A DNA stretch of 52,322 nucleotides from an uncultured Bacteroidaceae bacterium. Lineage in GTDB: Bacteria > Bacteroidota > Bacteroidia > Bacteroidales > SM23-62. Of this stretch, positions 22,693 through 40,375 are shown piece after piece; within the stretch, counting starts at the first letter, position 1, and each line of letters starts with the position of its first letter. The translations under genes and the position numbers were made by a program. Location of the stretch: NCBI GenBank assembly GCA_964540005.1, contig CAZILN010000185.1, positions 1-52,322 of the forward strand. The letters run 5' to 3'. The notes beneath the pieces were generated by a model. It was given only the letters and a program-made list of their open reading frames with translations, was not told the origin of the DNA and searched no databases.

Positions 22693-22766
22693 TTAATACT
22701 CTTATTATTAGTATTTACGCTAGCCATTGCTGAGAACTAAAATCAATTTGATATCATAAATTGGGC

Positions 22767-23018: not shown

Positions 23019-23141
23019 AATACTGTTATTTTGATTGGTTTATCACTCTCAAAGAAAGCTGCCTCAAAATGCATTTTATTTCCAACCCCATTCCTTCTGA
23101 CTGGGAATTTCAACTGATCAATTATTCTGAGGCAGCTCCTG

Positions 23142-23949: not shown

Positions 23950-24026
23950 ATACAAAAAATTATTATATTTGTCCTGCAAAGATAATGCACATATGTGCAA
24001 AATCCAAATAATATAAAATAAATGTT

Positions 24027-24562: not shown

Positions 24563-25243
24563 CTAACCTTTCTTACTTATGATCTCCAGCAGGTCTTTAT
24601 CCAGAATTTTTATCTTCCTGCCGCTCAGTTCTATTATCCCCGTATCATCAAATTCATTAAGAATGCGGCAGATGCTTTCCCGTGAAGTATTAATAAAATA
24701 CCCCAGTTCAAGTCTTGTTAAGGGTAATACAAATTCATCCTTTTCGTAGATCTCATCAGAGAAGAACAATAAGGCATCCGATGCACGGCCATGAATATAT
24801 TTCTGGGTTCGGTTTACACATTGATGAAATGAGTTCAGCTCATTGCGGCATAGTTCAATGATTATTTCGTAGGCAAAATTTCCGTTTGCAAAAATGAAGT
24901 CCTTAAATACATCAATATTAATAAAGCAGACTTTGGTATCTTCAACTGCCGTTGCAGAATATTGGTTGATCTTTTCACCAAAGGTCGTAGGGATACCCAG
25001 GTAGGATGGAGCTTTGGTAATCTTAATTATCTGCTCTTCAACCGGACCTGACATATGTATTTTAACAAGGCCGCTCCTGACATATATAATATTTGAAGAG
25101 AAGGCTCCCTGTTTAAAGATAACATCCCCCTTTCTGAAATTGACTATCACACAATTGTTCCCAAGTTTTTCCAGCTCATCTGTATTCAGAAATTTAACTG
25201 CAGATGATTGGATTTTACAATTCTTACAGATGCTCTCTTCCAT
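24563..25243 (-). CDS. Crp/Fnr family transcriptional regulator
   Basis: 226 aa with a cNMP-binding-like beta-barrel (FRKGDVIFKQG) and a C-terminal HTH (TSRESICRILNEF). The N-terminal CKNCK pair is reminiscent of Fnr-type Cys ligands, but the set is incomplete. Confidence 0.82.
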   Translation of the reverse strand: MEESICKNCKIQSSAVKFLNTDELEKLGNNCVIVNFRKGDVIFKQGAFSSNIIYVRSGLVKIHMSGPVEEQIIKITKAPSYLGIPTTFGEKINQYSATAVEDTKVCFINIDVFKDFIFANGNFAYEIIIELCRNELNSFHQCVNRTQKYIHGRASDALLFFSDEIYEKDEFVLPLTRLELGYFINTSRESICRILNEFDDTGIIELSGRKIKILDKDLLEIISKKG

Positions 25244-25397: not shown

Positions 25398-25823
25398 ATG
25401 GAAAACAAAAAAATGGTAATGGCTCTTTTTTCAGGAAGCTTAGACAAACTAACCTGTGCAGGTGTTATACTCAGTGGTGCTGCGGCTGATGATATGGAAG
25501 TCGATATTTATGTACTGCTGCAGGGCGCCCGGGCCTTCAAAAAGGAAATTGCAAAAAATACGGATAAGCTGGCTATGGCAGAGAATCCTCATCTAAGAGA
25601 AGAGTTCATACAATCATTAGAGCAGCTCAAGGTAAAACCATGGCATGAATTTTTTAAGGAAGCCAAAGAACTTACCAGCGTTAAGATTCACGTTTGCGGG
25701 TTGGCCGGGAAGCTCTGGGGAGGTGAAAAAATTGATGACTTCATTGATCTTGCCGACGATATATGCGGTATAGGGGAATATGTCTCAGCTGCACAGGAAG
25801 CTGATGTGCACCTGTTTATCTAA
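25398..25823 (+). CDS. DsrE/DsrF-like family protein
   Basis: 141 aa. MALFSGSLDKLTCAGVILSGAAA and the HVCGLAG pattern match the DsrE-like peroxiredoxin-family fold commonly paired with TusA. Confidence 0.65.
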   Translation: MENKKMVMALFSGSLDKLTCAGVILSGAAADDMEVDIYVLLQGARAFKKEIAKNTDKLAMAENPHLREEFIQSLEQLKVKPWHEFFKEAKELTSVKIHVCGLAGKLWGGEKIDDFIDLADDICGIGEYVSAAQEADVHLFI

Positions 25824-25887
25824 ACAGCAATCATTAGCTGTAACGAAATATAGGTAACTGTAATAATAAATTACTAAATCTAACATC

Positions 25888-26139
25888 ATGGAAGCACAAG
25901 AATTAAGCGGTCTTACAGTAAATAAAGTTGTTGACGCCCGTGGAACGGCATGTCCAGGTCCACTGCTGGCAGCTAAAAAAGCCATTGCAGAAATCGGCTC
26001 GGGTGATATTATGGAGATACTATCTTCAGATGAAGGAACAAGACGGGATATCCCGAAATGGGCCGGTAAGAAGGGTCATGAGTATCTGGGGACCCTTGAA
26101 GAATCGGGTTATTTTAAGATCTACATGAAGAAACAATAA
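25888..26139 (+). CDS. TusA/SirA-like sulfurtransferase
   Basis: 83 aa. DARGTACPGPLLAAKKAI carries the Cys-Pro-x-Pro active-site motif. Confidence 0.85.
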   Translation: MEAQELSGLTVNKVVDARGTACPGPLLAAKKAIAEIGSGDIMEILSSDEGTRRDIPKWAGKKGHEYLGTLEESGYFKIYMKKQ

Positions 26140-26144
26140 GGAGG

Positions 26145-26546
26145 ATGGAGGGCTCAGAAGGTAAGAATTCTCCAAAGATCCTGGTATTCTCAACAGAAAA
26201 GATCTCAGATCCTGCTATAGACCTTGCCGGTTTGCTTAAAATGCACTATCCGCCAACGGTCTGCACTATAAGTATTCCCTGCTCCAGCGCTGTCAAACCC
26301 AGGTGGATCATGCATGCCTTTGAGAAGGGTTACGACGGTGTTTTTATTGCAGCTGACGGCACGGATTGCCCGTACAGCGATAGTTGTACCGACAATACGG
26401 CCTGGATTGTCGGGCAAACCCATGAGCTGATGAAGGAGAAAGGTTTGAAGCCTGAAAGACTGAGGATGGCTGCCATCTGTTCCGTGTGTTCGGAGCCCTT
26501 TGTCAGGCAGATGAAAACCTTTGCAGAATCCTTCTCGGGATCTTAA
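26145..26546 (+). CDS. MvhD/FlpD-like (methyl-viologen-reducing hydrogenase delta subunit) domain protein, Cys-depleted variant
   Basis: KILVF...AIDLAGLLKMHYPP...IPCSS...HAFEKGYDGVFIAADGTDCPY aligns to the MvhD pattern I recall (CNWCSY...VMCSG...GCHxGDCHY). The first CxxC is replaced by STEKIS and the GCH Cys is absent. A GGAGG Shine-Dalgarno lies upstream. Confidence 0.7.
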   Translation: MEGSEGKNSPKILVFSTEKISDPAIDLAGLLKMHYPPTVCTISIPCSSAVKPRWIMHAFEKGYDGVFIAADGTDCPYSDSCTDNTAWIVGQTHELMKEKGLKPERLRMAAICSVCSEPFVRQMKTFAESFSGS

Positions 26547-26556
26547 AAGCATTGTT

Positions 26557-27858
26557 ATGACAGAATTAACAGCAGATTATGATGTTCTGGTCATCGGGGG
26601 AGGCATAGCCGGGGAAGAGGCTGCCTTAAACCTTGCATATTCGGGTTTTAAGATCCTGCTTGTTGAGAAGGATTTTTCAATCGGTGGCAAAATGATCCAC
26701 CTGAGCAAGGTTTTTCCCACCCTTGACTGCGCTGCCTGCATCACCACACCAAAAGTATCGGAAACGGTCAGGCATCCGAATATTACCATATTTACCAGCT
26801 CTGAGGTCCGGGATATAGAAAAGCAAGCGGACAATAGTTTTTCCTTCACCCTGGTTGAAAACCCGAGATACGTGACAGATGATTGCACAGGCTGCCAGGT
26901 CTGTGAGGAAAAATGTCCCATCGTTGTGGATGACCAGTATCAATGGGACCTGGTAGGCAGAAAAGCAATATATATACCATTCAGTATTGCGAGTCCGCGC
27001 ATCGCGGCTATTGATATCGAGAATTGTATACTCTGTGGATTATGCGAGAAATTATGTCCTGCGGACGCTATTGACTTTACCCAGGAAATAAGACAGAGTA
27101 CTGTTACAGTCAGATCAATCATCTTCGCAACCGGTTTCAGGCTTTTCGATCCGCTGCAAATGCCACGGTACGGTTTCGGACAATATAAGAATGTGGTTAC
27201 TTCCATGCAAATGGAAAGACAGCTGGTTCCCACCCGGCCGTATAACACCGTACTGCGTCCGGGGGACGGCAAAGTACCTGATAATATTGCCTATGTCCTG
27301 TGTACAGGTTCCCGCGATGAGAGCATCGGAAACCCTATCTGTTCCCAGGTTTGCTGCATGTATTCCATTAAGCAGGCACAACTGCTGATGGGTGCCTTAC
27401 CCATGGCCGATATTACTATTTATTATATCAATATAAGAGCCTTTGGTAAAGGATTCAATGAGTTTTATGAACAATCAAAAGATATGGGGGTTGAATTCGT
27501 AAAGGCAAAAATTGCAAAAATCGACAAAAAAGAGAACGGAAACCTGGTCCTAAGGTATGAAGACATTAAGGAAGCGAAAATTATGGAGACCGAACATGAT
27601 ATGGTAGTATTATCGATTGGTTTTCTCGCAAATACTGAGTTCTCAGGGATGTTTAAAAATGATTCGGTTGAAGAGGACAGTTATCATTTTATAAAACAAA
27701 CGCAGGTATTGGCCAGTCCGGCAAAAACAAGCATTGAAGGGATTTTTGTTGCCGGAACTGCATCAGGACCCATGGATATTCCTGACTCTATCCTGTCTGC
27801 CGGGGCAGCTTCTTCCGAAACGGCCGGTTATATCAGGAGGCTTAGCAATGAAGAATAA
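26557..27858 (+). CDS. HdrA-like FAD/Fe-S oxidoreductase, short form (QmoA-like architecture)
   Basis: The start is reassigned to MTELTADYDVLVIGGGIAGEEAA (FAD dinucleotide fold). Also present: LDCAACITTPK, the ferredoxin insert CTGCQVCEEKCP / CILCGLCEKLCP, CSQVCCMYS and FVAGTASGPMDIPDS. 433 aa. Confidence 0.85.
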   Translation: MTELTADYDVLVIGGGIAGEEAALNLAYSGFKILLVEKDFSIGGKMIHLSKVFPTLDCAACITTPKVSETVRHPNITIFTSSEVRDIEKQADNSFSFTLVENPRYVTDDCTGCQVCEEKCPIVVDDQYQWDLVGRKAIYIPFSIASPRIAAIDIENCILCGLCEKLCPADAIDFTQEIRQSTVTVRSIIFATGFRLFDPLQMPRYGFGQYKNVVTSMQMERQLVPTRPYNTVLRPGDGKVPDNIAYVLCTGSRDESIGNPICSQVCCMYSIKQAQLLMGALPMADITIYYINIRAFGKGFNEFYEQSKDMGVEFVKAKIAKIDKKENGNLVLRYEDIKEAKIMETEHDMVVLSIGFLANTEFSGMFKNDSVEEDSYHFIKQTQVLASPAKTSIEGIFVAGTASGPMDIPDSILSAGAASSETAGYIRRLSNEE

Positions 27859-29782
27859 AATAGGTGTATATATCTGTCAGTGTGGTTCAAACATCTCCGA
27901 TTATGTTGATGTAGAAAAAGTCAAAGATATTGTATCCGCACGGGACGGGGTCAAACTGGCAAAAACAACCATGTTTGCCTGCGCAGATTCGGTCCAGAAA
28001 GAGATCGTCCAGGATATACAAGAAAACGAACTGGATGCTATTGTTATCGCTTCCTGTTCACCGAAACTGCATTTATTCACCTTTCGTGCTGTGGCTGAAC
28101 GTGCCGGCCTGAATCCCTATAATTATGTCCAGGTAAATATACGTGAACAATGTTCATGGGCCCATTCTGACAATCCGGTCAAAGCCACGGATAAAGCAAT
28201 CCGGCTGATCGAAGCAGGTATAGCACGGGTCAGGCATTCTGCAGCACTGGAGAAAATTAAGATCGAAGCTCAGAATACTGTTGTAGTTGTTGGCGCCGGC
28301 ATAGCAGGCATGCGTGCCGCTATTGAACTTGCTGATATGGGATCACAGGTCTTTTTGATTGAAAGGGAATATTATACAGGGGGCAGGCTTGCTCAATGGA
28401 ATGAACTTTATCCCAGCAGCGAATCCGGACACGATATCATCGCCGGGCTTTATAAGCAATTGATCAATCACAGGAACATAAGAGTTTATACCGGGGCGGA
28501 GATTGTTTCAAATACGGGAATTATGGGTGACTATACAATAGAAGTCAGCATCAGGCCCAGGTATATCAGTACGGATACCAGGATAGATGCTGCAGTGCTG
28601 CAGAAGGCTATAGATGCCTGTCCTGTTGAAACAGATGATGATTTTAATTTTAATCTTACCATTAGGAAGGCCATTTATAAAAACCCTACGGGCACATATC
28701 CTGACATACCTGTAATCGATGTTGGATCCTGCAATAAATGCGGTGAATGCCTTAAAATATGTAAGGATATAGATCTTGAACGAAAATCCGAAACAGTAGA
28801 GATCCATGCAGGGGCCATTTTACTGGCAACCGGTTTCGACCTTTATGAACCCCAGCCCGGGGAGTTTGCTTACTCCCGGATAGACAATGTTATTACATTT
28901 CAGCAATTCAGGCGGTTGATAGAACTGAATGAAAAGGAGCTGGTTTATAAGAACAGGACTATCAGGAACATCGCCTATATATACTGCGTGGGGAGCCGGC
29001 AGGCAGATAATGGCAATAAATATTGCTCACGTTATTGTTGCACGGCTGCCATCCATTCAGCTATCCTGGCAAGGAAAAAATACCCCGGCATAAATAATTT
29101 TCATTTTACCAGGGGGATAAGGACATACGGTAAACAGGAAGTGATATACCAGGAAAGTCTGAATAATGGTGACCTGTTCATGCAATCCTTCGAAGATGAT
29201 CCCCCTGTAGTAGAAAAACAGGGTAATGAGACTATTGTAAAGATCAGGGATGTTCTGACTGAAAACACAGAACTTGAAGTGAGTGCAGACCTGGTTGTGC
29301 TGATTACCGCTATGGTTCCCCGTAAGGATAATTCCATAGCCGGTATCCTGAAAGTTCCCCTCGGGCGTGATAATTTTTTCAATGAAATTCATCCAAAACT
29401 CCGTCCTGTTGAGACAGTTATCGATGGCGTGTTTATTGCAGGGGTTTGCCAGGGACCAAAAAACATAACTGAATCAGTACAATCGGCATTATCTGCCGCA
29501 TCAAAAGCATATTCCATGCTCAGCAAAGGGGAAATAGAACTGGAACCCACCCTTGCCAGGATAGATAAGAGCCTTTGTCAGTGGTGTGATAAATGCCTGG
29601 AAGTATGTCCCTATGATGCAATTGTTAAAACAGAGCATGAAGGCAAAACGGTAGCTGTTGTTAATGAGCCAAACTGTAAGGGCTGTGGGATGTGCTTACC
29701 GGTTTGTCCGGAAAATGCAATTGATCTTATTGGTTATACGGATAAGGAAATTGAAAGTATGATAGATGCCATGGCGGAATAA
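27848..29782 (+). CDS. hdrA: HdrA-like heterodisulfide reductase subunit A homologue, long form
   Basis: The start is reassigned to MKNKIGVYICQCGSNI (HdrA N-terminal domain) and overlaps the previous stop by 11 nt. It has a FAD fold VVVVGAGIAGMRAA, CSRYCCTAAIH, the insert CNKCGECLKIC and the C-terminal 2x[4Fe-4S] CQWCDKCLEVCP / CKGCGMCLPVCP. 644 aa. Confidence 0.88.
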   Translation: MKNKIGVYICQCGSNISDYVDVEKVKDIVSARDGVKLAKTTMFACADSVQKEIVQDIQENELDAIVIASCSPKLHLFTFRAVAERAGLNPYNYVQVNIREQCSWAHSDNPVKATDKAIRLIEAGIARVRHSAALEKIKIEAQNTVVVVGAGIAGMRAAIELADMGSQVFLIEREYYTGGRLAQWNELYPSSESGHDIIAGLYKQLINHRNIRVYTGAEIVSNTGIMGDYTIEVSIRPRYISTDTRIDAAVLQKAIDACPVETDDDFNFNLTIRKAIYKNPTGTYPDIPVIDVGSCNKCGECLKICKDIDLERKSETVEIHAGAILLATGFDLYEPQPGEFAYSRIDNVITFQQFRRLIELNEKELVYKNRTIRNIAYIYCVGSRQADNGNKYCSRYCCTAAIHSAILARKKYPGINNFHFTRGIRTYGKQEVIYQESLNNGDLFMQSFEDDPPVVEKQGNETIVKIRDVLTENTELEVSADLVVLITAMVPRKDNSIAGILKVPLGRDNFFNEIHPKLRPVETVIDGVFIAGVCQGPKNITESVQSALSAASKAYSMLSKGEIELEPTLARIDKSLCQWCDKCLEVCPYDAIVKTEHEGKTVAVVNEPNCKGCGMCLPVCPENAIDLIGYTDKEIESMIDAMAE

Positions 29783-29799
29783 GGATAAAAATTTCGGAA

Positions 29800-30075
29800 A
29801 TGAAAAAAACAATTGATCATATCAAGGAGAAAAGGACGGTTTCCGAGGAATTAAAAGAAAAGCGTAAAGAGGACAACAGGATCAATAAACTGATCCTTAA
29901 AGCACTTGAATCCGGACCAAAGACCATTCCCCGGATTGCAGGGGAAACCGGGCTCGCGGAAGATATTGTTACCTATTATCTGATGACCCTCAGGAAATAC
30001 GGAAAGCTGGAAACCGGAGAGATTGATGATATGGATGAGTATTTCAACTATAAACTGAAACAGAAAAATGAATAA
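29800..30075 (+). CDS. Small winged-helix DNA-binding-like protein
   Basis: 91 aa. ILKALESGPKTIPRIAGETGLAEDIVTYYLMTLRKYGKL resembles a wHTH (ArsR/MarR-like) core. It is the last gene of the HdrA operon. Confidence 0.55.
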   Translation: MKKTIDHIKEKRTVSEELKEKRKEDNRINKLILKALESGPKTIPRIAGETGLAEDIVTYYLMTLRKYGKLETGEIDDMDEYFNYKLKQKNE

Positions 30076-30248
30076 CAAAGTGCCAATAAATCAAAGAGTT
30101 AATTCATTTGAAATTATTTACTGTTGAATTTTACGCCATATGCTGTATATTTCAACACTCCCTCTAAGTATTTAATTACCAGGTTAGTACAATGATCAAT
30201 TATTTCAGGTGTTGATATTCTCAGCAGTTTATCACCTGGACAGGCTTT

Positions 30249-30304: not shown

Positions 30305-30319
30305 TGGCACCATGTTTGG
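30305..30319 (+). promoter_or_regulatory. Candidate sigma-54 (-24/-12) promoter TGGCAC-N5-TTGG
   Basis: TGGCACCATGTTTGG matches the consensus TGGCAC-N5-TTGC with correct spacing and one mismatch at -12. It lies about 60 nt upstream of the ATG at 30381, and a sigma-54 activator is encoded in the same locus. Confidence 0.55.
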
Positions 30320-30380: not shown

Positions 30381-32066
30381 ATGAAAACAATTATTGTATT
30401 GATTTCAACAGTAACACTTCTGACTGCAACATTTGCAAATGGAGTGTCAAAAGGGAAAAGCCAACCCGCGACAGACTCCATTCATATCCTGTGTAGTCCC
30501 GACCTGGTGGAAATAGCCGGCACATGGGCTGCAAAATACACAAGTGATAATCCGGGAGCCGGCCTGTCGGTAAGCAGGATACCTGACCAAGGCTTGGATG
30601 ATATGTTGCAGACCGCCGGTACTATCTCTCTTGTCAGTAAGAAATACCTCCCTAATGCAGCCGGCCAGCGAACATGGAAGATGGTAGTAGGCCGGGATGT
30701 TGTTGTACCTGTTATGAATTCTGAAAACCCATACAGGGAGGAGATATTGCAGAAAGGGATCTCGCCTGAGGAATTTGCCGAACTTGTCAGTACTCCGGGC
30801 CGGCTTAGCTGGGGAATACTATTGAACAATACAGTTTCAGATCCTGTTAGGCCTTATTCTGCTAGCGATCAGTCTACCAGGACTTACCTGGCTGAATTCC
30901 TTGAGATAGATCAGCATTATATCACAGGGATAGAAACTGAAAATGCAGATGAGATGCTGAACTGCATCAGAAATGACAGGTTTGCCATTGGCTTTTGCCG
31001 GCTGACGGATATACTGGAGACCGGGGACAATGAAGTTATACCTGGAATAAGCCTTATACCGGTTGACAAGAACGGGAATGATCAGCTTGACCTTTTTGAG
31101 GATATTTATAATAATACCGGTGAACTGACCAGGGGTATCTGGATTGGCAAGTACCCGGGTACCTTATACAGCAGGTTGTATATGGTGGCCGCTGCCCGGC
31201 CGACCAGCGATAATGAACTGGCATTTATGGAATGGCTTGTCACCGAAGGTCAGCAATACCTGCCGGAGGATGGGTTCACAAGCCTGATTTACAGTGAGAG
31301 GCAATCTATGCTGCATAGTATTTATGACTACGGCATCCCTGTTGTTGATGTTCCTGTCAGAAGGGCTTCACAGCTAAAGTTATTCCTGATTATTACCGGA
31401 GCACTGCTGCTTGTTGCCATAATCCTTTATTTGCTTGCCAGGATCTTCAGGACCGGGAAATGGGAGGATGAAACAGTCGATGTCTGCCGCCTGTCTGTTT
31501 TCAGGGAAAACGCTGTTACATTTCCTACAGGATTATTTTTTGATAAAACTCATACATGGACCTTTATGGAAAAAGACGGCCGGGTACGAACCGGTATTGA
31601 TGATTTTCTTCAGCATGTAACAGGCCCCATTACAAGGGTGAAAATGAAGAAAGCCGGCGACAGGGTCGTTAAAGGAGAAACATTCCTTTCACTGATCCAG
31701 CGAGGCAAACAACTTGATATTCAATCGCCTGTATCAGGGATCATCAGGGAACAGAATTCAGAACTGGTTGCAGACTCGGAAACAATTAATGATGCTCCCT
31801 TTTCCGCTGGCTGGGTGTATGTAGTTGAACCCGGCAACTGGCTGAAAGAGATCAATACTTATCTCATGGGGGATAAGTACAGGGAATGGTTAAAAACCGA
31901 ATTTTCACGACTGAAGAATTTCCTGGCATCGGGCTTAAAACCCATGGAAACCGTAAATCCTGAACTCGTATTGCAGGATGGGGGTGAGATCAGGGACGGG
32001 GTACTTGAGTGTTATGGCCCGGAGGCATGGGAAGAATTTCAGTCCGGGTTCCTGCATACGGTTTGA
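30381..32066 (+). CDS. Fusion protein: signal peptide - PstS-like periplasmic binding domain - TM helix - GcvH-like domain
   Basis: ATG at 30381 (MKTIIVLISTVTLLTATFA) is preferred. The PBP-like N-terminal half includes IHILCSPDLVEIAGTWAAKY and VGRDVVVPVMNSENP. One TM helix (LFLIITGALLLVAIILYLLARIF) follows. The C-terminal part, HTWTFMEKDGRVRTGIDDFLQHVTG...GKQLDIQSPVSGII...PFSAGWVYVVEP, aligns along its length to the glycine-cleavage H-protein fold. Confidence 0.7.
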   Translation: MKTIIVLISTVTLLTATFANGVSKGKSQPATDSIHILCSPDLVEIAGTWAAKYTSDNPGAGLSVSRIPDQGLDDMLQTAGTISLVSKKYLPNAAGQRTWKMVVGRDVVVPVMNSENPYREEILQKGISPEEFAELVSTPGRLSWGILLNNTVSDPVRPYSASDQSTRTYLAEFLEIDQHYITGIETENADEMLNCIRNDRFAIGFCRLTDILETGDNEVIPGISLIPVDKNGNDQLDLFEDIYNNTGELTRGIWIGKYPGTLYSRLYMVAAARPTSDNELAFMEWLVTEGQQYLPEDGFTSLIYSERQSMLHSIYDYGIPVVDVPVRRASQLKLFLIITGALLLVAIILYLLARIFRTGKWEDETVDVCRLSVFRENAVTFPTGLFFDKTHTWTFMEKDGRVRTGIDDFLQHVTGPITRVKMKKAGDRVVKGETFLSLIQRGKQLDIQSPVSGIIREQNSELVADSETINDAPFSAGWVYVVEPGNWLKEINTYLMGDKYREWLKTEFSRLKNFLASGLKPMETVNPELVLQDGGEIRDGVLECYGPEAWEEFQSGFLHTV

Positions 32067-32113
32067 TAAGACAAAAAAGTTATTTAACATAATTAATTTA
32101 TTCTAATCTGATA

Positions 32114-32989
32114 ATGGGAATCAATCGACGAAATTTTTTCAAAGTACTTGGTTTGACAGGCGTATCACTGGGAACAGGCAAGAAGCTTGTTGCCATGCCT
32201 GATCAGGGAGATGATAAGGAATTCCGGGCCATCCTCTATGATGCAACCCGTTGCGGGGGGTGCCAGAGTTGTGAACTTGTATGTGCCTGGGAACATGATT
32301 TGCCTGAACCGGATCCTGAGGATATCCCCGTAGCGGGGATTCTCCGGAAGACCAATGAAAACAGGCGTTCTGTAATTAATGCTTATGAGACTTCCAGGGG
32401 GGAAGTATATGTTAAAAACCAGTGTATGCAGTGCAATCAGCCTGCCTGCGCTGCTGCCTGCCTGACCAGGGCCATGTATAAAACCGAGGAGGGACCCGTA
32501 ATCTGGAGGGGTGATAAGTGCATGGGCTGCCGGTACTGCATGGTCTCCTGTCCCTTTGATGTGCCTAAATTCGAATACAACAGTCCGAACCCTAAAATTG
32601 AAAAATGCAATATGTGTTTTGAAAAGGTAAAAGAGGGTGAGCTACCGGTCTGTGTCGAGAACTGCCCGGCTGAGGCCCTTACATTCGGGACCCGAAGGGA
32701 GCTGATTGCCGAGGCGCACAGGAGGATACATGATGACCCTGATCTGTACTATGACGGGGTTTATGGTGAACATGAAGCAGGAGGAACAGGATTTTTATAT
32801 CTCTCACCGGTCCCTTTCGAGGAGCTGGGATTCAATACCTCACTTCTGGACAGGCCTTATCCTGAATTAACAAAAGGATTCCTGTACTCTGTGCCTACAA
32901 TTTTTGTTTTGTGGCCCGCATTGTTACTGGGAATACACAATTCAACAAAGAATAATTCAAATAAGCCTGACCAGGATGAAGATGAATAA
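32114..32989 (+). CDS. NrfC/DsrO/HybA-type periplasmic 4x[4Fe-4S] ferredoxin subunit with Tat signal and C-terminal TM anchor
   Basis: Tat motif INRRNFFKVLGLTG. Four Cys clusters: CGGCQSCELVC, CMQCNQPACAAAC, CMGCRYCMVSCP and CNMC...CVENCP. Hydrophobic tail VPTIFVLWPALLLGI. Confidence 0.85.
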   Translation: MGINRRNFFKVLGLTGVSLGTGKKLVAMPDQGDDKEFRAILYDATRCGGCQSCELVCAWEHDLPEPDPEDIPVAGILRKTNENRRSVINAYETSRGEVYVKNQCMQCNQPACAAACLTRAMYKTEEGPVIWRGDKCMGCRYCMVSCPFDVPKFEYNSPNPKIEKCNMCFEKVKEGELPVCVENCPAEALTFGTRRELIAEAHRRIHDDPDLYYDGVYGEHEAGGTGFLYLSPVPFEELGFNTSLLDRPYPELTKGFLYSVPTIFVLWPALLLGIHNSTKNNSNKPDQDEDE

Positions 32990-34211
32990 AGCAGATTATA
33001 TCTTACCGCAAGATAATGACGGCAGGCCGGTTGTCAAATTCCTGGCTGCCGAACTCAAACCCAGGGGCAGGTTCCTGACTCCCTTCAATATCATTTCCTT
33101 ACCAATCATGATCCTAGGCATTGTGTTGATAGTCATTCGTTTTGCCAGGGGTATAGGTTCCATTACCAACCTTACCCAGGAAGTGCCCTGGGGCCTGTGG
33201 ATAGGATTTGATGTGGTAACAGGTGTTGCATTTGCCGGCGGAGCCTATGTTATAACATTCCTGGTCTATATTCTGAATGTGAAAAAGTATCATTCGATTG
33301 TCAGGGTGACAGTATTGAACGGGTTCCTGGCCTATGTATTTTATGCCGGTGCACTGCTTCTTGATCTTGGAAGACCATGGAATGTCATAAATCCTATCAT
33401 AGGGAACAGTTTCGGTGTCAGTTCTGTTCTGTTTCTTGTTGCCTGGCATTTCCTGCTTTACATGATAGCCCAGCTTATAGAATTCTCCCCGGCAATTGCC
33501 GAATGGTTAGGAGCCAGAAAAGCCAGAAAGATACTTTCGGGTATGACACTTGCCGCTGTCATTTTCGGAATCACCCTTTCCACTTTGCACCAGTCAGGTT
33601 TGGGAGCGCTGTACCTTATGGCCAAAGAAAAGATACATCCCTTGTGGTATTCTGAATTCATTCCCATCCTGTTCTTTGTGTCCAGCATTTTCGCAGGCCT
33701 GTCCATGGTGATTTTTGAAGGCTCGATCAGCCAGAAAGTCTTTTTTAAACAGATCAGTCCTGAGAATCATAAAACACACAATGGGATCCTGCATGGTTTG
33801 TCAAAGATTTGTGCCTTTACCCTCTTTGTATACTTTTTCCTGCAACTGCTTGTATTTGTACACGGACAGCACTGGGATCTGATTGGTACACCTATGGGTT
33901 ACTGGTACCTGACCGAGATGCTGGGATTTGTTCTGGTACCCATGCTGCTCTTTTTCTACAGTTACAGGAAACAGAACATTTTCATGATCAAGCTTGCCGC
34001 AATCATTACCATGCTGGGAGTAATAATAAACAGGCTGAACGTCACCGTCATTGGATTTAAATGGGATGCTGCTAATCATTACTATCCTTCATGGATGGAA
34101 ATTGTTGTAACGCTGACCGTCCTTTTTATCGAGATATGGATTTTCAGGTGGATAGTGAATCGCCTGCCGGTACTCAGGGACCCCCCGGCCTGGGCAAGGG
34201 AAAGTAATTAA
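32976..34211 (+). CDS. NrfD/PsrC/DsrP-type integral membrane quinone-interacting subunit
   Basis: The start is reassigned to MKMNKADY and overlaps the NrfC-like stop. About 410 aa, 8-10 TM helices, and the family-typical blocks WGLWIGFDVVTGVAFAGGAY and LGRPWN. Confidence 0.82.
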   Translation: MKMNKADYILPQDNDGRPVVKFLAAELKPRGRFLTPFNIISLPIMILGIVLIVIRFARGIGSITNLTQEVPWGLWIGFDVVTGVAFAGGAYVITFLVYILNVKKYHSIVRVTVLNGFLAYVFYAGALLLDLGRPWNVINPIIGNSFGVSSVLFLVAWHFLLYMIAQLIEFSPAIAEWLGARKARKILSGMTLAAVIFGITLSTLHQSGLGALYLMAKEKIHPLWYSEFIPILFFVSSIFAGLSMVIFEGSISQKVFFKQISPENHKTHNGILHGLSKICAFTLFVYFFLQLLVFVHGQHWDLIGTPMGYWYLTEMLGFVLVPMLLFFYSYRKQNIFMIKLAAIITMLGVIINRLNVTVIGFKWDAANHYYPSWMEIVVTLTVLFIEIWIFRWIVNRLPVLRDPPAWARESN

Positions 34212-34231
34212 GAACTATAAATAGTAAAAAA

Positions 34232-34951
34232 ATGAACGGATTTACATATACTGATATTTTTGACACCAAAGGCATTGAATACCTGATAATAATAGGGTTC
34301 CTGCTGTTGATCATTCCCGTATGGATACTGATAAACAGGCCCCTGAACCTGGGAATGAAAGTCAGGGAGGCGCTGGGGACACTGACAGATCGTATACTGC
34401 GCATCCCCCAGGGATTGTTCTACAGTAAAAATCATACCTGGACCTACCTGGAGAAATCGGGACTGGCAAGGGTGGGGATAAATGATCTCCTGCAGCATAT
34501 TACAGGCAGGATAGAACTGAACGATCTGCATGTTCCGGGGGAAAGGATAAATAAGGGCGATGTAATTGCACGGATCATACAGGATGGTAAGCACCTGGAC
34601 ATAACTTCTCCCATTTCCGGGGAGATACAGAAAGTTCATACCTCATTGGAACAGGATTCTGGCACCATCAATAAGGACCCATATGGTGAAGGCTGGATAT
34701 ATAAGATCAAACCGCATAGGTGGCTTGACGACACCTTTAGCTGTTACCTGGCTGGAGAAGCTACCGAATGGCTGAATAAGGAACTGAGAAGGTTTAAGGA
34801 TTTCCTGCTTGAAGCAATTAACCGTGATGCACCGGAATCATCTGCGGTAATAATGCAGGAAGGGGGAGAAATGTCCGATAATCCGCTTTCAGGAATGAGT
34901 AAGACAATCTGGAATGACTTCCAGAAAATGTTCCTCGACACAATAGACTGA
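34232..34951 (+). CDS. Membrane-anchored GcvH-like protein (paralogue of the C-terminal half of the 30381 fusion)
   Basis: N-terminal TM helix (IEYLIIIGFLLLIIPVWILI), then YSKNHTWTYLEKSGLARVGINDLLQHITG...GKHLDITSPISGEI...PYGEGWIYKIKP. This aligns to E. coli GcvH (YSKEHEWL...VGIT...ESVKAASDIYAPVSGEI...PYAGGWIFKIK) and continues into a tail shared with the fusion protein (EWL..EL.R.K.FL). Confidence 0.75.
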   Translation: MNGFTYTDIFDTKGIEYLIIIGFLLLIIPVWILINRPLNLGMKVREALGTLTDRILRIPQGLFYSKNHTWTYLEKSGLARVGINDLLQHITGRIELNDLHVPGERINKGDVIARIIQDGKHLDITSPISGEIQKVHTSLEQDSGTINKDPYGEGWIYKIKPHRWLDDTFSCYLAGEATEWLNKELRRFKDFLLEAINRDAPESSAVIMQEGGEMSDNPLSGMSKTIWNDFQKMFLDTID

Positions 34952-35046: not shown

Positions 35047-36717
35047 ATGATCGGTCCTGTTTATAGCTTTTTTAAAAAAACACTGGAAAGGAAACCGATA
35101 AGAAATTTCGTAAGATTCAGATCTTCGATCTATGGACGGGTCGTGCTTATCAGTGCCGGTTCGCTTATTGTCCTCTTTGTTCTCTTCAACATTGTTTTCA
35201 GGTCAGTTTATGTCGAATTTTTCAACAGGACAATTCGCCAGAACGGTGATCACATCAGCTCAATCGTCGAGGGAGCTTTGTACTATTCCATGCTGGAGAA
35301 TGACAGGGGGATGCTCCAGCGGACACTCGATATTATCAGTACCATGTCGGATATCGACGAGGTGAATATGTATGATGACATCAATAATCTTGCTTATACA
35401 ACCGCCCCTGCAGAGCTGGAAAACCGGGGAAATCCGAACTGCAATGAATGCCATGAAGATCTCGGAGCCATGTTCTCTTACAGGGAAAATGCATACAGGA
35501 TTGCTGATAATATACCCGAATGCGGGATCTACCAGAATACAAATAAAAGCAGGCATTTACTGATCAGGACGCCAATCCTTAATGAACCATCCTGTTATAC
35601 GGCAGCATGCCATGCACACTCAGAAAGTGATGTAGTACTTGGTTCTCTTTTGATCAACCTTCCGCTTGTGGATCTGGATGCATTCGTTGATGAATCATCG
35701 ACAAATTTTCTTTTCCTGGCTACCTTAATAACCATATTTCTCGTTACATTCCTAATCGTGTTTACCAGGAAAAGGATAAAGGATCCGCTCAATTCAATTA
35801 TTGAAGCCAGCGAAGCCGTATCCAACGGAGATAATAACATAAGGCTGGATATAAAACCCGGACTTCTTGATGATATGAGAAAGGTTTCACTTGCCTTCAA
35901 TAATATGCTTGATAATATTGATTCGGCAACTAAAGAATTACAAAACTGGTCACAACAGCTCGAATATAAGGTACAGAAAAAAACAGAGGAATTATCGGAA
36001 GCCCAGAACGAACTGATACATGTGGAAAGAATTGCATCCCTGGGTAAGCTCTCATCCTCAGTCGCACATGAGATCAATAACCCCCTGTCAGGGATCCTGG
36101 TGTATACTAAGTTGATACACAAACAATTAAGTAGTCCTGAATTCTATCATTCAAAAAAAGAATCCATCCTTAAAAACCTGACTTTAATTGAAACTGAAAC
36201 CAAACGCTGCGGCGACATAGTGAAGGGCTTACTTGATTTTTCGAGACAGGACAGGGATGATTTTGAGGTGTCACACCTTCATCAGCTCCTTGATGAAACA
36301 TACAATCTGATGACCCATTCCATCAAGATCGCAGACATCCGTTTTACCACCGATTATAATGCGGTCTCTGACATGGTTTTCTGCAGTCCGAACCAGGTGA
36401 AACAGGCTTGTATCGCACTGCTGGTGAATGCCTCGGAAGCCATACAGGAGCATGGTGAAATTAATATTAAAACATACAATCCGGATACGGATCACATAAG
36501 GGTTGATTTTTCAGATAACGGATCGGGGATCGCTCAGCAGGATCTGCCTCATATTTTCGAACCCTTTTTCTCAACCAAGCGTGAAGCGAGGGGTATCGGG
36601 CTGGGACTTTCCATCGTTCATGGGATTGTTGAAAATCATAAAGGCCGTATCGAAGTGGACTCAGAGCCGGGTGCAGGTACCACAGTCACAATAATTTTTC
36701 CTTTATCGGAAAATTAA
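35047..36717 (+). CDS. Sensor histidine kinase with periplasmic domain carrying c-type haem-binding motifs, plus HAMP, HisKA and HATPase
   Basis: Two TM helices flank a domain of about 170 aa containing CNECH (nt 35440-35454, CXXCH) and CYTAACH (nt 35593-35613, CX4CH). HAMP and a coiled coil follow, then the H-box SSVAHEINNPLS and the G-boxes DNGSGI and GIGLGLSIV. Confidence 0.8.
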   Translation: MIGPVYSFFKKTLERKPIRNFVRFRSSIYGRVVLISAGSLIVLFVLFNIVFRSVYVEFFNRTIRQNGDHISSIVEGALYYSMLENDRGMLQRTLDIISTMSDIDEVNMYDDINNLAYTTAPAELENRGNPNCNECHEDLGAMFSYRENAYRIADNIPECGIYQNTNKSRHLLIRTPILNEPSCYTAACHAHSESDVVLGSLLINLPLVDLDAFVDESSTNFLFLATLITIFLVTFLIVFTRKRIKDPLNSIIEASEAVSNGDNNIRLDIKPGLLDDMRKVSLAFNNMLDNIDSATKELQNWSQQLEYKVQKKTEELSEAQNELIHVERIASLGKLSSSVAHEINNPLSGILVYTKLIHKQLSSPEFYHSKKESILKNLTLIETETKRCGDIVKGLLDFSRQDRDDFEVSHLHQLLDETYNLMTHSIKIADIRFTTDYNAVSDMVFCSPNQVKQACIALLVNASEAIQEHGEINIKTYNPDTDHIRVDFSDNGSGIAQQDLPHIFEPFFSTKREARGIGLGLSIVHGIVENHKGRIEVDSEPGAGTTVTIIFPLSEN

Positions 36718-36727
36718 GAAATATATA

Positions 36728-38065
36728 ATGAATGAAAAAGTTACCATTTTAATCGTGGATGATGAGGAGTCAGTCAGGGATTCACTATACGACTGGTTCA
36801 TTGATGATGGATATTATGTTGAAACCGCTGAAGATGCGAAGAAAGCCCTCTCCATCCTTGATGAGAAGGAATTTGATATTGTACTGGCCGACATTAAAAT
36901 GCCGGGGATGGATGGTATGGAATTGCATAAACGTATCAAAACAATGTCCAGGGAACCCATCTTCATAATCATGACAGCCTTTGCTTCGGTTGATACGGCG
37001 GTCCAGGCCCTGAAAAACGGAGCATTCGACTATGTCACCAAACCTTTCGACCCTGATGACCTGTCCCATCTGATCAGAAATGCGGCCACACAGGTGTCTT
37101 TAAGGGCTGAAAATGAAACCTTGAAGAAAAACATCACCTCTCTTGTCGATGTGGAAGATATCGTCGGGAAGAGTGAAGCCCTGAAGAATGTTCTCAAAGA
37201 AGTTGAAAGTGTTGCCCAGTCTAATTCTTCCATTATTATCTGTGGGGAAAGCGGTACCGGGAAAGAATTAATTGCCAGGGCCATTCATTCCAATTCATCA
37301 CGGAAATATTTCCCCATGGTCAGCGTTCATTGTGGTGCCCTGACTGAGAGCCTCCTTGAGAGTGAACTCTTCGGTCATGAAAAAGGTGCTTTTACCGGTG
37401 CTTCTTTTAACCGTAAAGGAAGGTTCGAAATGGCTGACGGCGGAACGATCTTCCTGGATGAGATCAGTACCATTACCTCCAAAATGCAAATAGAATTGCT
37501 CAGGGTCCTGGAATCCAAGACATTTGTCAGGGTTGGGGGAAACAAGGAAATGACCTCTGATTTCCGGGTTATCTGTGCCACCAACAGGGACCTGAAGAGC
37601 ATGGTAAACAGCGGTACCTTCCGTAAAGATCTCTACTACAGGTTGAATGTGGTAACCATCAGGATCCCTCCGCTGCGGGACAGGGTTGAGGATATTCCAT
37701 TGCTGGCGGATCACTTTATCAGGAAGTATTGTACATCGATGAGCCGGGACCTGATATCAATTGAACCGGCGGCCCTCAGGCACCTGGAAGAACTGGAATT
37801 CCCCGGTAATGTTCGTGAACTGGAGAACATGATCGAACGGGCCATCGTAATAGGAAACGGGAAGGAGATCAGGTTAAAAGACCTTCCTATGGGTAAGGAG
37901 GTCATAAGCAGTTCCATTGAAAGCCTGGAAGATCTTGAAAAGAAGCATATCCTGAAGATACTGGACAAATATTCATGGAATATTTCGCGTACTGCCAAGG
38001 CCTTGCATGTCGACAGGGCTACTCTCTATAACAAGATCAAGAAATATAAACTGGAGCAGGAGTGA
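36728..38065 (+). CDS. Sigma-54-dependent response regulator (NtrC/Fis family enhancer-binding protein)
   Basis: Receiver domain (DDEESV, DIVLADIKMPGMDG). AAA+ core with Walker A GESGTGKE and the sigma-54 contact loop GAFTGA. C-terminal Fis-type HTH (NISRTAKALHVDRATLYNKIKK). Confidence 0.9.
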   Translation: MNEKVTILIVDDEESVRDSLYDWFIDDGYYVETAEDAKKALSILDEKEFDIVLADIKMPGMDGMELHKRIKTMSREPIFIIMTAFASVDTAVQALKNGAFDYVTKPFDPDDLSHLIRNAATQVSLRAENETLKKNITSLVDVEDIVGKSEALKNVLKEVESVAQSNSSIIICGESGTGKELIARAIHSNSSRKYFPMVSVHCGALTESLLESELFGHEKGAFTGASFNRKGRFEMADGGTIFLDEISTITSKMQIELLRVLESKTFVRVGGNKEMTSDFRVICATNRDLKSMVNSGTFRKDLYYRLNVVTIRIPPLRDRVEDIPLLADHFIRKYCTSMSRDLISIEPAALRHLEELEFPGNVRELENMIERAIVIGNGKEIRLKDLPMGKEVISSSIESLEDLEKKHILKILDKYSWNISRTAKALHVDRATLYNKIKKYKLEQE

Positions 38066-38070: not shown

Positions 38071-38607
38071 TTGGATAAACAGAAAATTATATTAATAGCC
38101 TGCGGTCATTTTGAGAAAAACCAGACAGGCGGGATAGAAGAAAAAATAGAGCAAAGCTTTCATTATCCTGTGGAGCTGATAGAATGCAATCTTGATATCA
38201 GTCGTTTCTATAATCCGGGCCGCCGGCAGTATAATGCCAATGAATTAATGGCTGTTGTGTCAAACTCTTACCTTCCCGGTTCATTAAAAATAATGGGATT
38301 GTTCAGGGTGGACCTGTATATACCCATCCTGACCTATATCTTCGGCCAGGCTCAATTAAAGGGTCAGACCGGGATCGCTTCTCTTTACCGCCTCAGAAAC
38401 GAACTGTACGGCCTCGAACCGGACCACAGCCTGCTGAGCGAACGATTCACCAAGGTCATCATTCATGAACTGGGACATATGTTTGGCCTGATCCATTGCA
38501 ATTACCCGGTCTGCGTCATGCGCTCCAGCACTTATGTTGAGGACTTGGATCAGAAAGAGATCCATTTCTGCCACAGCTGCCAGGCAGAGCTTAGCCGCCT
38601 TCAATAA
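38071..38607 (+). CDS. Archaemetzincin-like zinc metallopeptidase (peptidase family M54-like)
   Basis: HELGHMFGLIHCNYPVCVM...CHSC follows the archaemetzincin signature HExxHxxGxxxCxxxxCxM...CxxC. TTG start 5 nt after the regulator stop. 178 aa. Confidence 0.75.
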   Translation: MDKQKIILIACGHFEKNQTGGIEEKIEQSFHYPVELIECNLDISRFYNPGRRQYNANELMAVVSNSYLPGSLKIMGLFRVDLYIPILTYIFGQAQLKGQTGIASLYRLRNELYGLEPDHSLLSERFTKVIIHELGHMFGLIHCNYPVCVMRSSTYVEDLDQKEIHFCHSCQAELSRLQ

Positions 38608-38689: not shown

Positions 38690-39247
38690 ATGTCCTATAC
38701 TGATAATGAAATAATTGAAAAACTCAGGCAGGGTGATCAGAAGGTTTTAAAACATCTATTTGATGTTTATTTCAGGGACCTGTTGATCTGTTCATTAAAA
38801 TATGTAATAAACAGTGACATCGCAGAGGAGATCGTGCAGGATGTTTTTATTCAGATCTGGAAGAACCGGAAGGTAATTCAGATCAAAAAATCCCTTTCTT
38901 CCTATCTTTTTACTTCAGTTAAGAACAGATCATTAAATCATATTAAGAGCAAGCATGCACGGATGCAATTCGTCGAACTGGGATCCGCAGAAATTAAAAT
39001 ATCAGCCGGTCCGGCCGATGAAACTTTAATTAGCGGGGAAATGAAAGCATCCATACAGGAAGCGATAAATACCCTTCCTCCCAAATGCAGGATCATATTT
39101 AACCTGTCCAGAAACGCAGAAATGTCCACAGCTGAGATTGCCGGCGAACTGAATATATCTGTAAAGACCGTTCATGCACAGATTGGGATAGCTCTGAAAA
39201 AAATCAGGGAACATCTTAAGGATCAGTGGGATAATATACTTTCCTGA
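38690..39247 (+). CDS. ECF-type RNA polymerase sigma-70 factor (Bacteroidetes subfamily)
   Basis: 185 aa. Region 2 (EEIVQDVFIQIWKNR) and region 4 HTH (MSTAEIAGELNISVKTVHAQI). Confidence 0.88.
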   Translation: MSYTDNEIIEKLRQGDQKVLKHLFDVYFRDLLICSLKYVINSDIAEEIVQDVFIQIWKNRKVIQIKKSLSSYLFTSVKNRSLNHIKSKHARMQFVELGSAEIKISAGPADETLISGEMKASIQEAINTLPPKCRIIFNLSRNAEMSTAEIAGELNISVKTVHAQIGIALKKIREHLKDQWDNILS

Positions 39248-39351
39248 ATACTGCGAACCCGGTTAATTTTCATTTTTCCCCGGAATCTTTTTAAGCATCT
39301 GCCTGATAATCTTGTCTTATATACAGACAGGGATCAATAAATCTATTTGTC

Positions 39352-40344
39352 ATGAATGATGAACACATTATTGCTTATCTCAGGAATGAGCTAAGCACCG
39401 AAAAGAGGAAAGAGGTCGAAAACTGGGCAGCCTCCTCGAAAGATAACAAACGGTATTTTAACAGGATAAAATTTCTCTGGGAACATTCTGTCAGTGATTT
39501 TAAGAACGCGGCCATCAGGCCGGAACTGGTATGGAACAGGATTGAATATGCTGTCAACCAGGAACGTTCCGTGCGGAGCAGAACCTTTTCTGTGGTATAC
39601 AGAAACTTCAGCAGAATAGCAGCCATAGCGATCATTGCGTTTGGCATCGGATTTCTGACTATCAGGACAGTCCGTCAAAACCAGATACCGGAATCTGAAT
39701 GGATCCTTGCTCATGCTGCAACAGGATCCAACGAAATAATATTGCCCGATAAAAGCCGGGTATGGCTGAACGCCGGTTCCGGGATTTCCTATCCTGAAAA
39801 GTTCAGGGGAAGACTGCGTGAAGTGAAAATTGAAGGTGAAGCCTACTTCGAAGTTACCAGGAAAAGAAGCAAACCATTTGTAATCCAGGCAGGCAGCTCA
39901 GGCATCAGGGTTCTGGGTACAAGCTTCAATGTGAACCACAAGCATAATGCAGAAAAGATTATCGTAACGGTACTTACAGGACGCATCGCTTTCTTTGAAT
40001 CTGAAAAACCAGAAAACAGAATCAAACTTGATGCGGGAGAACAGGGTGTGTACAATACGCTGAATGCGGAGCTGAATAAACAGGTAAATACCGATGATAA
40101 TTTCCTGTCCTGGAAAACAGGTATCCTCATTTTTGACAATACTTCACTGGAGGATGTATGCCGGGATCTGTCTCTTCATTACATGCTGACAATAGTTCCA
40201 TCCAATGCAGATATTCTTAAAGCAAAAAGCCTTTCGGCTACTTTTGATAATAAGACTGTTGAAGAGGTATTAAACATTCTGTCCATCACCCTCGATATAT
40301 CCTATAAAACAGATGATGAAATTATTACTCTTTTCCCTGAATAA
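39352..40344 (+). CDS. FecR family anti-sigma factor / transmembrane sensor
   Basis: 330 aa, a single TM (IAAIAIIAFGIGFLTI), the FecR domain (LPDKSRVWLNAGS..., GEAYFEV) and a C-terminal DUF4974-like part. Confidence 0.85.
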   Translation: MNDEHIIAYLRNELSTEKRKEVENWAASSKDNKRYFNRIKFLWEHSVSDFKNAAIRPELVWNRIEYAVNQERSVRSRTFSVVYRNFSRIAAIAIIAFGIGFLTIRTVRQNQIPESEWILAHAATGSNEIILPDKSRVWLNAGSGISYPEKFRGRLREVKIEGEAYFEVTRKRSKPFVIQAGSSGIRVLGTSFNVNHKHNAEKIIVTVLTGRIAFFESEKPENRIKLDAGEQGVYNTLNAELNKQVNTDDNFLSWKTGILIFDNTSLEDVCRDLSLHYMLTIVPSNADILKAKSLSATFDNKTVEEVLNILSITLDISYKTDDEIITLFPE

Positions 40345-40375
40345 GCGGCAAGGGTATCAATATGAGAAATCCATC

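Follow-up and report, generated by a model that had tools for sequence, protein, structure and literature searches.

A conserved NrfC/NrfD unit of Bacteroidales with two membrane-anchored GcvH-fold proteins and a sigma-54-type promoter

Four genes at positions 30381–34951 of contig CAZILN010000185.1 (assembly GCA_964540005.1, an uncultured Bacteroidaceae bacterium) were analysed within the whole 52,322-nt stretch of DNA, referred to below as the window. They are co-directional, with short or overlapping junctions, and encode a fusion of a PstS-like periplasmic domain to a GcvH-like domain, an NrfC-type iron–sulfur protein, an NrfD-type membrane subunit, and a short paralogue of the fusion. The region is tentatively explained as one sigma-54-controlled membrane redox unit of anaerobic Bacteroidales and their relatives, namely a menaquinone-linked periplasmic redox module that is inducible and has new accessory subunits. 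We prefer this explanation and hold it to be possible rather than probable. The core of the unit is of a kind already known, an NrfCD module under a two-component system; for the accessory architecture no precedent was found. In full-text literature searches, no description was found of a membrane-anchored GcvH protein, a PstS–GcvH fusion or an NrfCD unit with GcvH neighbours, in keeping with an initial annotation of this DNA that had called the architecture undescribed. Features are listed in Table 1.

The limits set for the four-gene stretch in that annotation are exact: the fusion gene (product MKTII...) begins with its ATG at position 30381, and the stop codon of the short paralogue ends at 34951. 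Conservation was assessed in 21 loci, comprising the window, 17 loci from metagenome-assembled genomes (MAGs) of Bacteroidales in a genome collection, and three loci obtained by exact protein look-ups. In 20 of them the genes stand in the order fusion, nrfC, nrfD, short paralogue, histidine kinase, sigma-54 response regulator. A gene for an M54 metallopeptidase, which may belong to the unit, comes after the regulator in 16 of the 17 loci that extend to this point (window counted) and is absent in locus L019. The conserved unit amounts to six or seven genes, of which the four-gene stretch is only a part. The four genes first described as a unit are real, but the unit runs on into the kinase and the regulator, and usually the metallopeptidase, and its promoter lies upstream.

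Orthologues share 63–78% identity with the window protein for NrfD, 60–73% for the kinase, 71–84% for the response regulator, 59–77% for NrfC, 45–56% for the short paralogue and 35–44% for the fusion. By sequence comparison, NrfD appears to be the most conserved protein of the unit. More than 860 full-length homologues of the fusion and 1441 homologues of the short paralogue were found; together with the recurrence of the four-gene order in 20 of the 21 loci, these numbers indicate that the arrangement is not due to chance. With E ≤ 1e-30, a representative search yielded about 288 clusters of 50% identity. The best 150 representative hits show only two architectures, of about 240 and about 560 residues, and include a few versions of 450–510 residues with a shorter periplasmic domain and some truncated sequences. 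The named sources of homologues are all Bacteroidota, with the proteins annotated as hypothetical, as GcvH or as phosphate-binding protein. The sole genome match from outside the Bacteroidota, in locus L018 of a Thermoproteota archaeon, covers the GcvH domain alone (28% identity).

The NrfC/NrfD pair was recovered as initially proposed, with Pfam matches of 71.2 bits to Fer4_11 for the iron–sulfur protein and of 51.8 bits to NrfD (cutoff 25.8) for the membrane subunit. The cysteines of NrfC fall into four cluster motifs (4 × [4Fe-4S]) at residues 47–57, 104–116, 136–146 and 165–184. Its best family matches were HmcB (310.6 bits, equivalog cutoff 420) and HybA (214 bits), and those of NrfD were HmcC (400.3 bits, equivalog cutoff 550) and HybB (259 bits). 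The start of nrfD is most likely 32976, as set by the called gene in L019, and not the start of the open reading frame (ORF) at 32904. NrfD has no conserved cysteine. When it was aligned to E. coli HybB, the equivalents of R89, Y99, E148, E155, H184, K198, H200, E291 and R329 were found to be invariant in 19 orthologues. The residues of the proposed cytoplasmic-side proton half-channel are invariant among these orthologues, as are most of the periplasmic-side residues and three of the six residues proposed for the HybB quinone site. The HybB residue lists are those of PMC8076601, where mutation of R89, Y99, E148 or H184 impairs hydrogen oxidation. Judged by these alignments, the NrfCD pair looks functional.

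The pair resembles HybA–HybB of E. coli hydrogenase 2 and HmcB–HmcC of the Desulfovibrio Hmc complex in that a four-cluster ferredoxin, exported by Tat and anchored by its tail, goes with a quinone subunit of ten helices that lacks cofactors and conserves HybB proton-pathway residues. It differs from Hmc in scoring below the HmcB and HmcC equivalog cutoffs. It also differs from both systems in its company: hydrogenase, HmcA, HmcD, HmcE and HmcF are missing from the unit, and the partners are instead two bitopic proteins of the H-protein fold. Anaerobic respiration uses NrfC/NrfD modules as its standard quinone adaptor, and to our knowledge none has so far been met without a catalytic or cytochrome partner. 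The initial annotation had remarked on the lack of an electron-input enzyme, and in the 21 loci no catalytic or stand-alone cytochrome subunit and no hydrogenase is conserved beside the unit; genes for the HmcA multihaem cytochrome, the HmcE cytochrome b and the HmcF CCG protein are likewise absent from the loci. A catalytic gene was also sought by all-against-all clustering of the upstream ORFs of 14 loci, including the other strand. The upstream genes proved unrelated from one locus to the next, with a Crp-type regulator of weak similarity, seen in three loci, as the only shared feature. The contexts given in a published survey for tail-anchored ferredoxin/HybB-like pairs are an octahaem cytochrome, Hmc and FeFe hydrogenase (bioRxiv 10.1101/2023.11.02.564894), and that of the present operon is not among them.

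By homology with the HybA/HmcB and HybB/HmcC types, the periplasmic ferredoxin would pair with the cofactor-less quinone- and proton-handling subunit, and the two would shuttle electrons between the menaquinone pool and a periplasmic partner. A direct electron path across the membrane is unlikely, since NrfD-type subunits carry no cofactor for it. Strict synteny and the shared promoter suggest that the two paralogous single-pass proteins are accessory subunits. The N-terminal tail and transmembrane helix of the short paralogue, both highly conserved, would retain it in the complex, and the fusion would set its PstS-fold domain next to the iron–sulfur protein. There the domain might dock or bind a periplasmic ligand or partner, not feed a transporter. 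Both H-protein-fold domains, with their conserved tails, would lie at the cytoplasmic face, possibly in a regulatory or relay role.

The architecture assigned to the fusion at the outset, namely signal peptide, solute-binding fold, one transmembrane helix and GcvH-like domain, is borne out by Pfam, by AlphaFold2 with Foldseek, and by hydropathy. In Pfam, PBP_like_2 matched residues 30–290 at 25.7 bits, just under the cutoff of 27, and a precomputed PF12849 match exists for only some of the homologues. A search of the PDB with the single sequence of the periplasmic domain gave no match, so that a profile was required. An AlphaFold2 model built from 85 homologues (mean predicted local distance difference test score, pLDDT, 75.5, with 80–95 over the periplasmic domain) resembles PstS-type binding proteins in the PDB, as found with Foldseek (4jwo, E 3e-15; 1twy, TM-score 0.69; 4n13, TM-score 0.72). 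As modelled, the N-terminal half has a type II periplasmic binding-protein (PstS) fold, the fold expected for it from the start.

The phosphate site is not kept in this fold. In profile alignments to 4h1x, 4pqj and 1twy, the phosphate-binding motif GS[ST][ST] corresponds to a conserved SSPDL, GS[SG]xG corresponds to unconserved residues, and R..SGT corresponds to xDES, the hinge Asp alone being retained. With all three motifs replaced, phosphate binding was rejected as a function; any ligand would be other than phosphate, and the loss argues against a role in transport. What the fusion family does conserve in this domain is an RGxWIGKYP motif, one cysteine (C206) and an EF-hand-like loop in which D229, N231, N233 and E240 are invariant. 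The acidic character of the loop suggests a cation ligand.

The PstS fold and the weak PBP_like_2 match would also suit an orphan transporter component, the domain being the tethered receptor of a phosphate or other oxyanion ABC transporter whose genes lie elsewhere in the genome. We find this hardly credible. Besides the replaced motifs, ABC permease and ATPase genes are missing from all 21 loci, as the initial annotation had noted for the window, and homologues are not routinely encoded with transporter genes; the domain never occurs without a cytoplasmic GcvH domain fused to it, nor without nrfCD encoded alongside. A transporter role is largely excluded. The earlier proposal of a sensor or relay in place of a transporter component holds as far as the transporter is concerned, while a sensor or relay is one of several readings that the data allow.

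Topology was predicted from hydropathy and charge rules, at a crude level. The signal peptide and single transmembrane helix of the fusion put its PstS-like domain outside and its GcvH domain inside, so that the model, hydropathy and charge agree with the placement on opposite sides of the membrane that had been suggested before. In the short paralogue, Lys and Arg occur only C-terminal to the transmembrane helix, which places its GcvH domain inside as well. The N-terminal tail of the short paralogue, with the motif MxGFxYTxIFDTKGIEY, and the transmembrane helix that follows are the best-conserved part of that protein. In a shorter fusion variant, P0370, a TKGIEY motif stands just ahead of the transmembrane helix.

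Pfam GCV_H was matched at 67.6 bits by the fusion (residues 389–509) and at 73.8 bits by the short paralogue (cutoff 22.2). A profile of the fusion GcvH domain found T. thermophilus GcvH in the PDB at E 6e-22, and Foldseek aligned the fusion model to the H-protein 3ab9 with a TM-score of 0.80. Both proteins have the H-protein (lipoyl-domain-like) fold, yet both fall under the GcvH equivalog cutoffs, with 57.1 and 62.4 bits for TIGR00527 (cutoff 115.85) and 73 and 76 bits for PRK01202 (cutoff 117). BLASTP (E 1e-51) gave a gap-free alignment of 191 residues between the paralogues, 38% of them identical. The paralogy and the shared tail reported initially hold, with both quoted tail strings inside this alignment, but the common extension past the canonical GcvH end measures about 53 residues (509–561) and not about 40. 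Almost all members of both families carry the tail motifs Q[DE]GG and W..F[QE].

A near-complete set of canonical H-protein residues is kept, namely HxW, the Gly positions, PxSG, N, P and GW, with a lysine at the hairpin tip as in GcvH. The present proteins differ from GcvH in being membrane-tethered, in their conserved tail, in scoring about half the equivalog cutoff, and in not being encoded with gcvT or gcvP, neither of which was found in any of the 21 loci. The lysine (Lys443 of the fusion, Lys120 of the short paralogue) also lies one residue nearer to PxSG than in GcvH: it occurs in QxGK against the canonical ESVK, with the spacing K-6-P.SG against K-7-P.SG, and HMMER needs a one-residue indel on either side to align lysine to lysine. 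All 120 close homologues of the fusion carry it, as do about 108 of 109 cluster representatives. In the short paralogue it is present in 118 of 120 close homologues, and in about 7 of 36 cluster representatives it is replaced by R, Q, H, N or G (homologues with a replacement: P0146, P0151, P0358, P0360, P0361, P0363, P0373, P0432 and P0445). By these counts the fusion lysine appears to be under strict constraint and the short-paralogue lysine to be dispensable, which fits one active and one structural copy. The shifted lysine weakens the idea of a swinging arm, raised initially, and so does the fact that some short paralogues have lost it. There are no conserved cysteines in the GcvH parts; the only ones, C369, C544 and C171, are all unconserved.

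LbpA of sulfur-oxidizing Hdr-like (sHdr) systems offers another comparison, as a GcvH-like protein with a conserved lysine that acts outside glycine cleavage. LbpA is soluble, has two strictly conserved cysteines, one N-terminal and one C-terminal, and is encoded with shdr genes and a dedicated LplA-like ligase (PMC6067878). The present proteins share neither the solubility nor the cysteine pair, have no conserved association with shdr genes, and come without the ligase gene.

The state of the lysine bears on an explanation that we regard as improbable, in which the unit would be a lipoyl-dependent respiratory complex with Lys443 carrying lipoyl or a related acyl-dithiol. The tethered dihydrolipoyl arm would be reduced by Lpd or by the glycine-cleavage P and T proteins and would pass electrons directly to menaquinone where NrfD, itself without cofactors, faces the cytoplasm, in the manner of DsbB or VKOR, which couple dithiols to quinones. 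The quinol would be re-oxidized at a periplasmic site, from which electrons would leave through NrfC to an acceptor on the PstS-like domain. The invariance of Lys443 keeps this explanation open, and the retention of almost all canonical H-protein residues, with the strong profile match to T. thermophilus GcvH, speaks for it. A precedent by analogy is DsrMKJOP with DsrC, where a complex containing NrfCD works on a dithiol arm borne by a cytoplasmic protein. As there, a membrane complex with an NrfC/NrfD pair and a periplasmic haem protein would be joined by a cytoplasmic protein with a mobile redox-active arm. In DsrMKJOP, however, the haem b and CCG-domain subunits DsrMK provide the transmembrane electron path and the catalytic site, and the present unit has no equivalent. 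Against this explanation stand the off-register spacing of the lysine, its absence from part of the short-paralogue clusters, and the lack of a dedicated lipoate ligase conserved in the loci. The NrfD subunit, moreover, has no conserved cysteine, and the NrfD-type quinone sites known so far face the periplasm (PMC8076601). Were the lipoyl explanation true, the unit would represent a respiratory enzyme of a new kind, with a tethered H-protein arm linking a cytoplasmic dithiol/disulfide couple directly to menaquinone through NrfD, and a sixth, membrane-bound context for the lipoyl cofactor.

The kinase is the only haem-type protein in the conserved unit. Its periplasmic region (residues 53–218) holds the motifs CxxCH and Cx4CH and a fifth conserved cysteine, Cys159, which might take part in a disulfide or in an extra thioether, or might belong to another sort of metal site; H191 is conserved in 43 of 43 homologues. 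By sequence the region had no match in the PDB and only weak Pfam matches to sCache_4 and to the CusS sensor. A model from 43 homologues (pLDDT 71) has the long-helix-plus-five-strand PDC topology, with the WalK extracellular domain as the best Foldseek match and the Geobacter haem-c sensors GSU0935 and GSU0582 also among the top matches. The latter resemble the kinase in having a c-type haem motif in a PDC-like periplasmic sensor; they differ in being chemoreceptors with one haem, as against two motifs and an additional cysteine here. The kinase sensor is most simply read as a probable di-haem c sensor. The conservation of this kinase and of the regulator with the operon means that the unit is probably not entirely haem-free and has a dedicated regulator.

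Upstream of the fusion gene lies a sigma-54-type -24/-12 element. The pattern [TC]GGCA[CT]-N5-TTG is found 41–194 bp upstream of that gene in 21 of 21 loci (window included), against a chance expectation of about 0.006 per locus (base composition, 390-bp search, one strand). Palindromes of the type TGTTG-N7-CAACA occur in two or three copies 90–180 bp upstream of the element in most related loci and are predicted as probable binding sites of the sigma-54 activator. A -24/-12 element with upstream palindromes is the usual layout of promoters activated by bacterial enhancer-binding proteins, and the adjacent response regulator probably activates the promoter at 30305. Kinase, regulator and promoter together resemble sigma-54 two-component systems of the NtrBC, AtoSC or ZraSR type, with a HisKA and HATPase kinase, a receiver–AAA+–HTH_8 regulator and a -24/-12 promoter. 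Scans for sigma-70 promoters and terminators gave counts near those of shuffled sequence, the consensus used being one that does not fit Bacteroidota.

For the redox module favoured here, we infer that the kinase senses the periplasmic redox state, possibly by exchanging electrons with the iron–sulfur protein, and that through the response regulator it turns the operon on from the -24/-12 promoter with its palindromic upstream sites. Synteny and co-regulation suggest that four or five of the proteins assemble into one complex.

The same observations might point to a pure signalling device, in which the four proteins form a sensory complex for the kinase and are not a respiratory enzyme. NrfC and NrfD would then equilibrate the haems of the kinase with the redox state of the menaquinone pool, the PstS-like domain on its tether would be a co-sensor touching the periplasmic domain of the kinase, by analogy with TorT/TorS, AioX/AioS and YycH/YycI/WalK, and the cytoplasmic GcvH domains and tails would modulate kinase or regulator. 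We consider this explanation unlikely, although it has several points in its favour. The kinase and the regulator are as strictly syntenic as the four genes, and one related locus, L013, retains fusion, kinase and regulator and has lost nrfCD. The phosphate site is gone, so that the PstS-like domain is not a transport receptor. The best structural match of the kinase sensor is WalK, which is regulated by the two single-pass membrane proteins YycH and YycI. AioXSR and TorTSR are precedents for a periplasmic binding protein working with a sensor kinase and, by analogy, for the trio of binding protein, kinase and sigma-54 regulator.

The likeness to these systems consists of a periplasmic binding-protein fold alongside a sensor kinase in Aio and Tor, with a sigma-54-dependent regulator in Aio, and of single-pass accessory proteins with a PDC-type kinase in WalK. 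Their binding protein, however, is soluble and devoid of a cytoplasmic domain, and an NrfCD module plays no part in them. We know of no kinase that uses an H-protein-fold partner. Furthermore, NrfD is highly conserved and keeps the HybB proton-pathway residues, which suggests energy transduction rather than a probe, and the four genes stand under a regulated promoter and look like an output as well as a possible input.

Several points weigh against the redox module as well. In L013, nrfC is cut to a 41-residue remnant (11684–12023 of that locus) and nrfD and the short paralogue are gone, with fusion, kinase and regulator intact. This is either a natural deletion or an assembly artefact, so that the fusion may work with the kinase alone, or else the locus is decaying or misassembled. 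All relatives are MAGs and hence come without physiology. The transmembrane helix of the fusion is poorly conserved, which is unusual for a tightly packed subunit. Haem attachment to the kinase is read from motifs only, and with C159 also conserved, a metal site of another kind is conceivable. Gene order and shared regulation are no proof that four or five proteins assemble, and the redox-module explanation assigns no concrete chemistry to the GcvH domains, the most unusual feature of the unit.

In this widespread lineage of sediment and bioreactor Bacteroidales, a highly conserved NrfCD pair has no fixed partners other than two H-protein domains on tethers, a binding-protein domain that has degenerated and a kinase that probably contains haem. 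Working out the function would yield either a new type of input or output for the NrfCD family or a respiratory module recruited for redox sensing, and for the first time a membrane-bound role would be on record for the H-protein fold. The operon is compact, its promoter and its regulator are clear, and it lends itself to several sharp predictions that can be tested.

Table 1. Features of the unit in the window (nucleotide positions of the window; residue numbers of the respective protein)
Feature	Positions	Strand	Remarks
Palindromes, TGTTG-N7-CAACA type	30141–30157, 30210–30226	+	one mismatch each
Sigma-54-type -24/-12 element	30305–30318	+	TGGCAC-N5-TTG, 76 bp 5' of fusion start codon
Fusion protein, 561 aa	30381–32066	+	signal peptide, PstS-fold domain, transmembrane helix, GcvH-fold domain, conserved tail
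Fusion, signal peptide	residues 1–19
Fusion, PstS-fold domain	30468–31355; residues ~30–325	+	without phosphate site
Fusion, EF-hand-like loop	31059–31100; residues 227–240	+	PxDxNGNxxxDxxE, in PstS-fold domain
Fusion, transmembrane helix	31368–31451; residues 330–357 (AlphaFold2)	+	334–352 by hydropathy
Fusion, GcvH-fold domain	31521–31904; residues 381–508	+
Fusion, Lys443	31707–31709	+	candidate lipoyl lysine; Gly-Lys invariant in fusion
Fusion, conserved tail	31905–32063; residues 509–561	+
NrfC-type iron–sulfur protein (HybA/HmcB-like)	32114–32989	+	Tat signal RRNFFK, 16 Cys, C-terminal transmembrane anchor 256–274
NrfD-type membrane subunit (HybB/HmcC-like), ~411 aa	32976–34211	+	9–10 transmembrane helices, cofactor motifs absent
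Short paralogue, 239 aa	34232–34951	+	N-terminal tail and transmembrane helix, cytoplasmic GcvH-fold domain, fusion-type C-terminal tail
Short paralogue, N-terminal tail and transmembrane helix	34232–34339; residues 1–36	+
Short paralogue, Lys120	34589–34591	+	candidate lipoyl position
Sensor histidine kinase	35047–36717	+	TM1, periplasmic PDC/sCache-type domain, TM2, HAMP, HisKA, HATPase
Kinase, CxxCH (C132–H136)	35440–35454	+	42/43 homologues
Kinase, Cys159	35521–35523	+	between haem motifs; 42/43 homologues
Kinase, Cx4CH (C183–H189)	35593–35613	+	43/43 homologues
Sigma-54-dependent response regulator	36728–38065	+	receiver, AAA+ sigma-54 activator domain, Fis-type HTH (HTH_8)
M54 (archaemetzincin-like) metallopeptidase	38071–38607	+	Peptidase_M54 77 bits; starts 5 bp after regulator gene

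Directly upstream of the operon, on the same strand, positions 25398–30075 encode a DsrE-like protein, TusA, MvhD/FlpD, two HdrA-like flavoproteins (445 and ~644 aa) and a small winged-helix protein. Judged by its genes, this cluster, which lacks HdrBC and QmoC, is of the sulfur-relay or Qmo-like kind; a Crp/Fnr regulator is encoded beside it on the minus strand (24563–25243). The proximity of the cluster would allow the unit to be its sulfur-relay partner, with LbpA-like GcvH domains presenting sulfur or electrons to the HdrA-like flavoproteins, and sHdr systems always join Hdr-like proteins, LbpA, TusA and DsrE (PMC6067878; bioRxiv 10.1101/2023.12.18.572138). This explanation is nevertheless very improbable. 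The cluster stands upstream of the operon in the window only and is absent from all 20 related loci, including L019, the fusion of which is 77% identical; the operon has its own sigma-54 promoter, HdrB and HdrC genes are missing, and so are the LbpA-defining cysteine pair and an LplA-like ligase gene. The link to the DsrE–TusA–MvhD–HdrA–HdrA cluster was rejected as largely refuted by synteny and, like the transporter role, is largely excluded.

Further upstream, a gene cluster of the kind typically found in anaerobes occupies the minus strand at 19909–24000, with two MinD/ParA-type ATPases that carry ferredoxin inserts, a DUF134 protein and small ORFs. Downstream of the unit, a standard Bacteroidota unit for trans-envelope signalling and uptake occupies the plus strand at 38690–44034 (ECF sigma factor, FecR-type anti-sigma factor, TonB-dependent receptor and DUF4249 protein). 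It is followed at 47351–49915 (plus strand) by an 854-residue fusion of a CheB methylesterase, a CheR methyltransferase and PAS domains. Genes for a glycoside hydrolase, a GFO/IDH/MocA protein and a 3-keto-disaccharide hydrolase lie at 2131–4048 of the window (region 10–6950). The same set of genes is found in L019 (1–4400) only about 3 kb upstream of the operon, which indicates that about 25 kb was inserted or rearranged in the lineage of the window.

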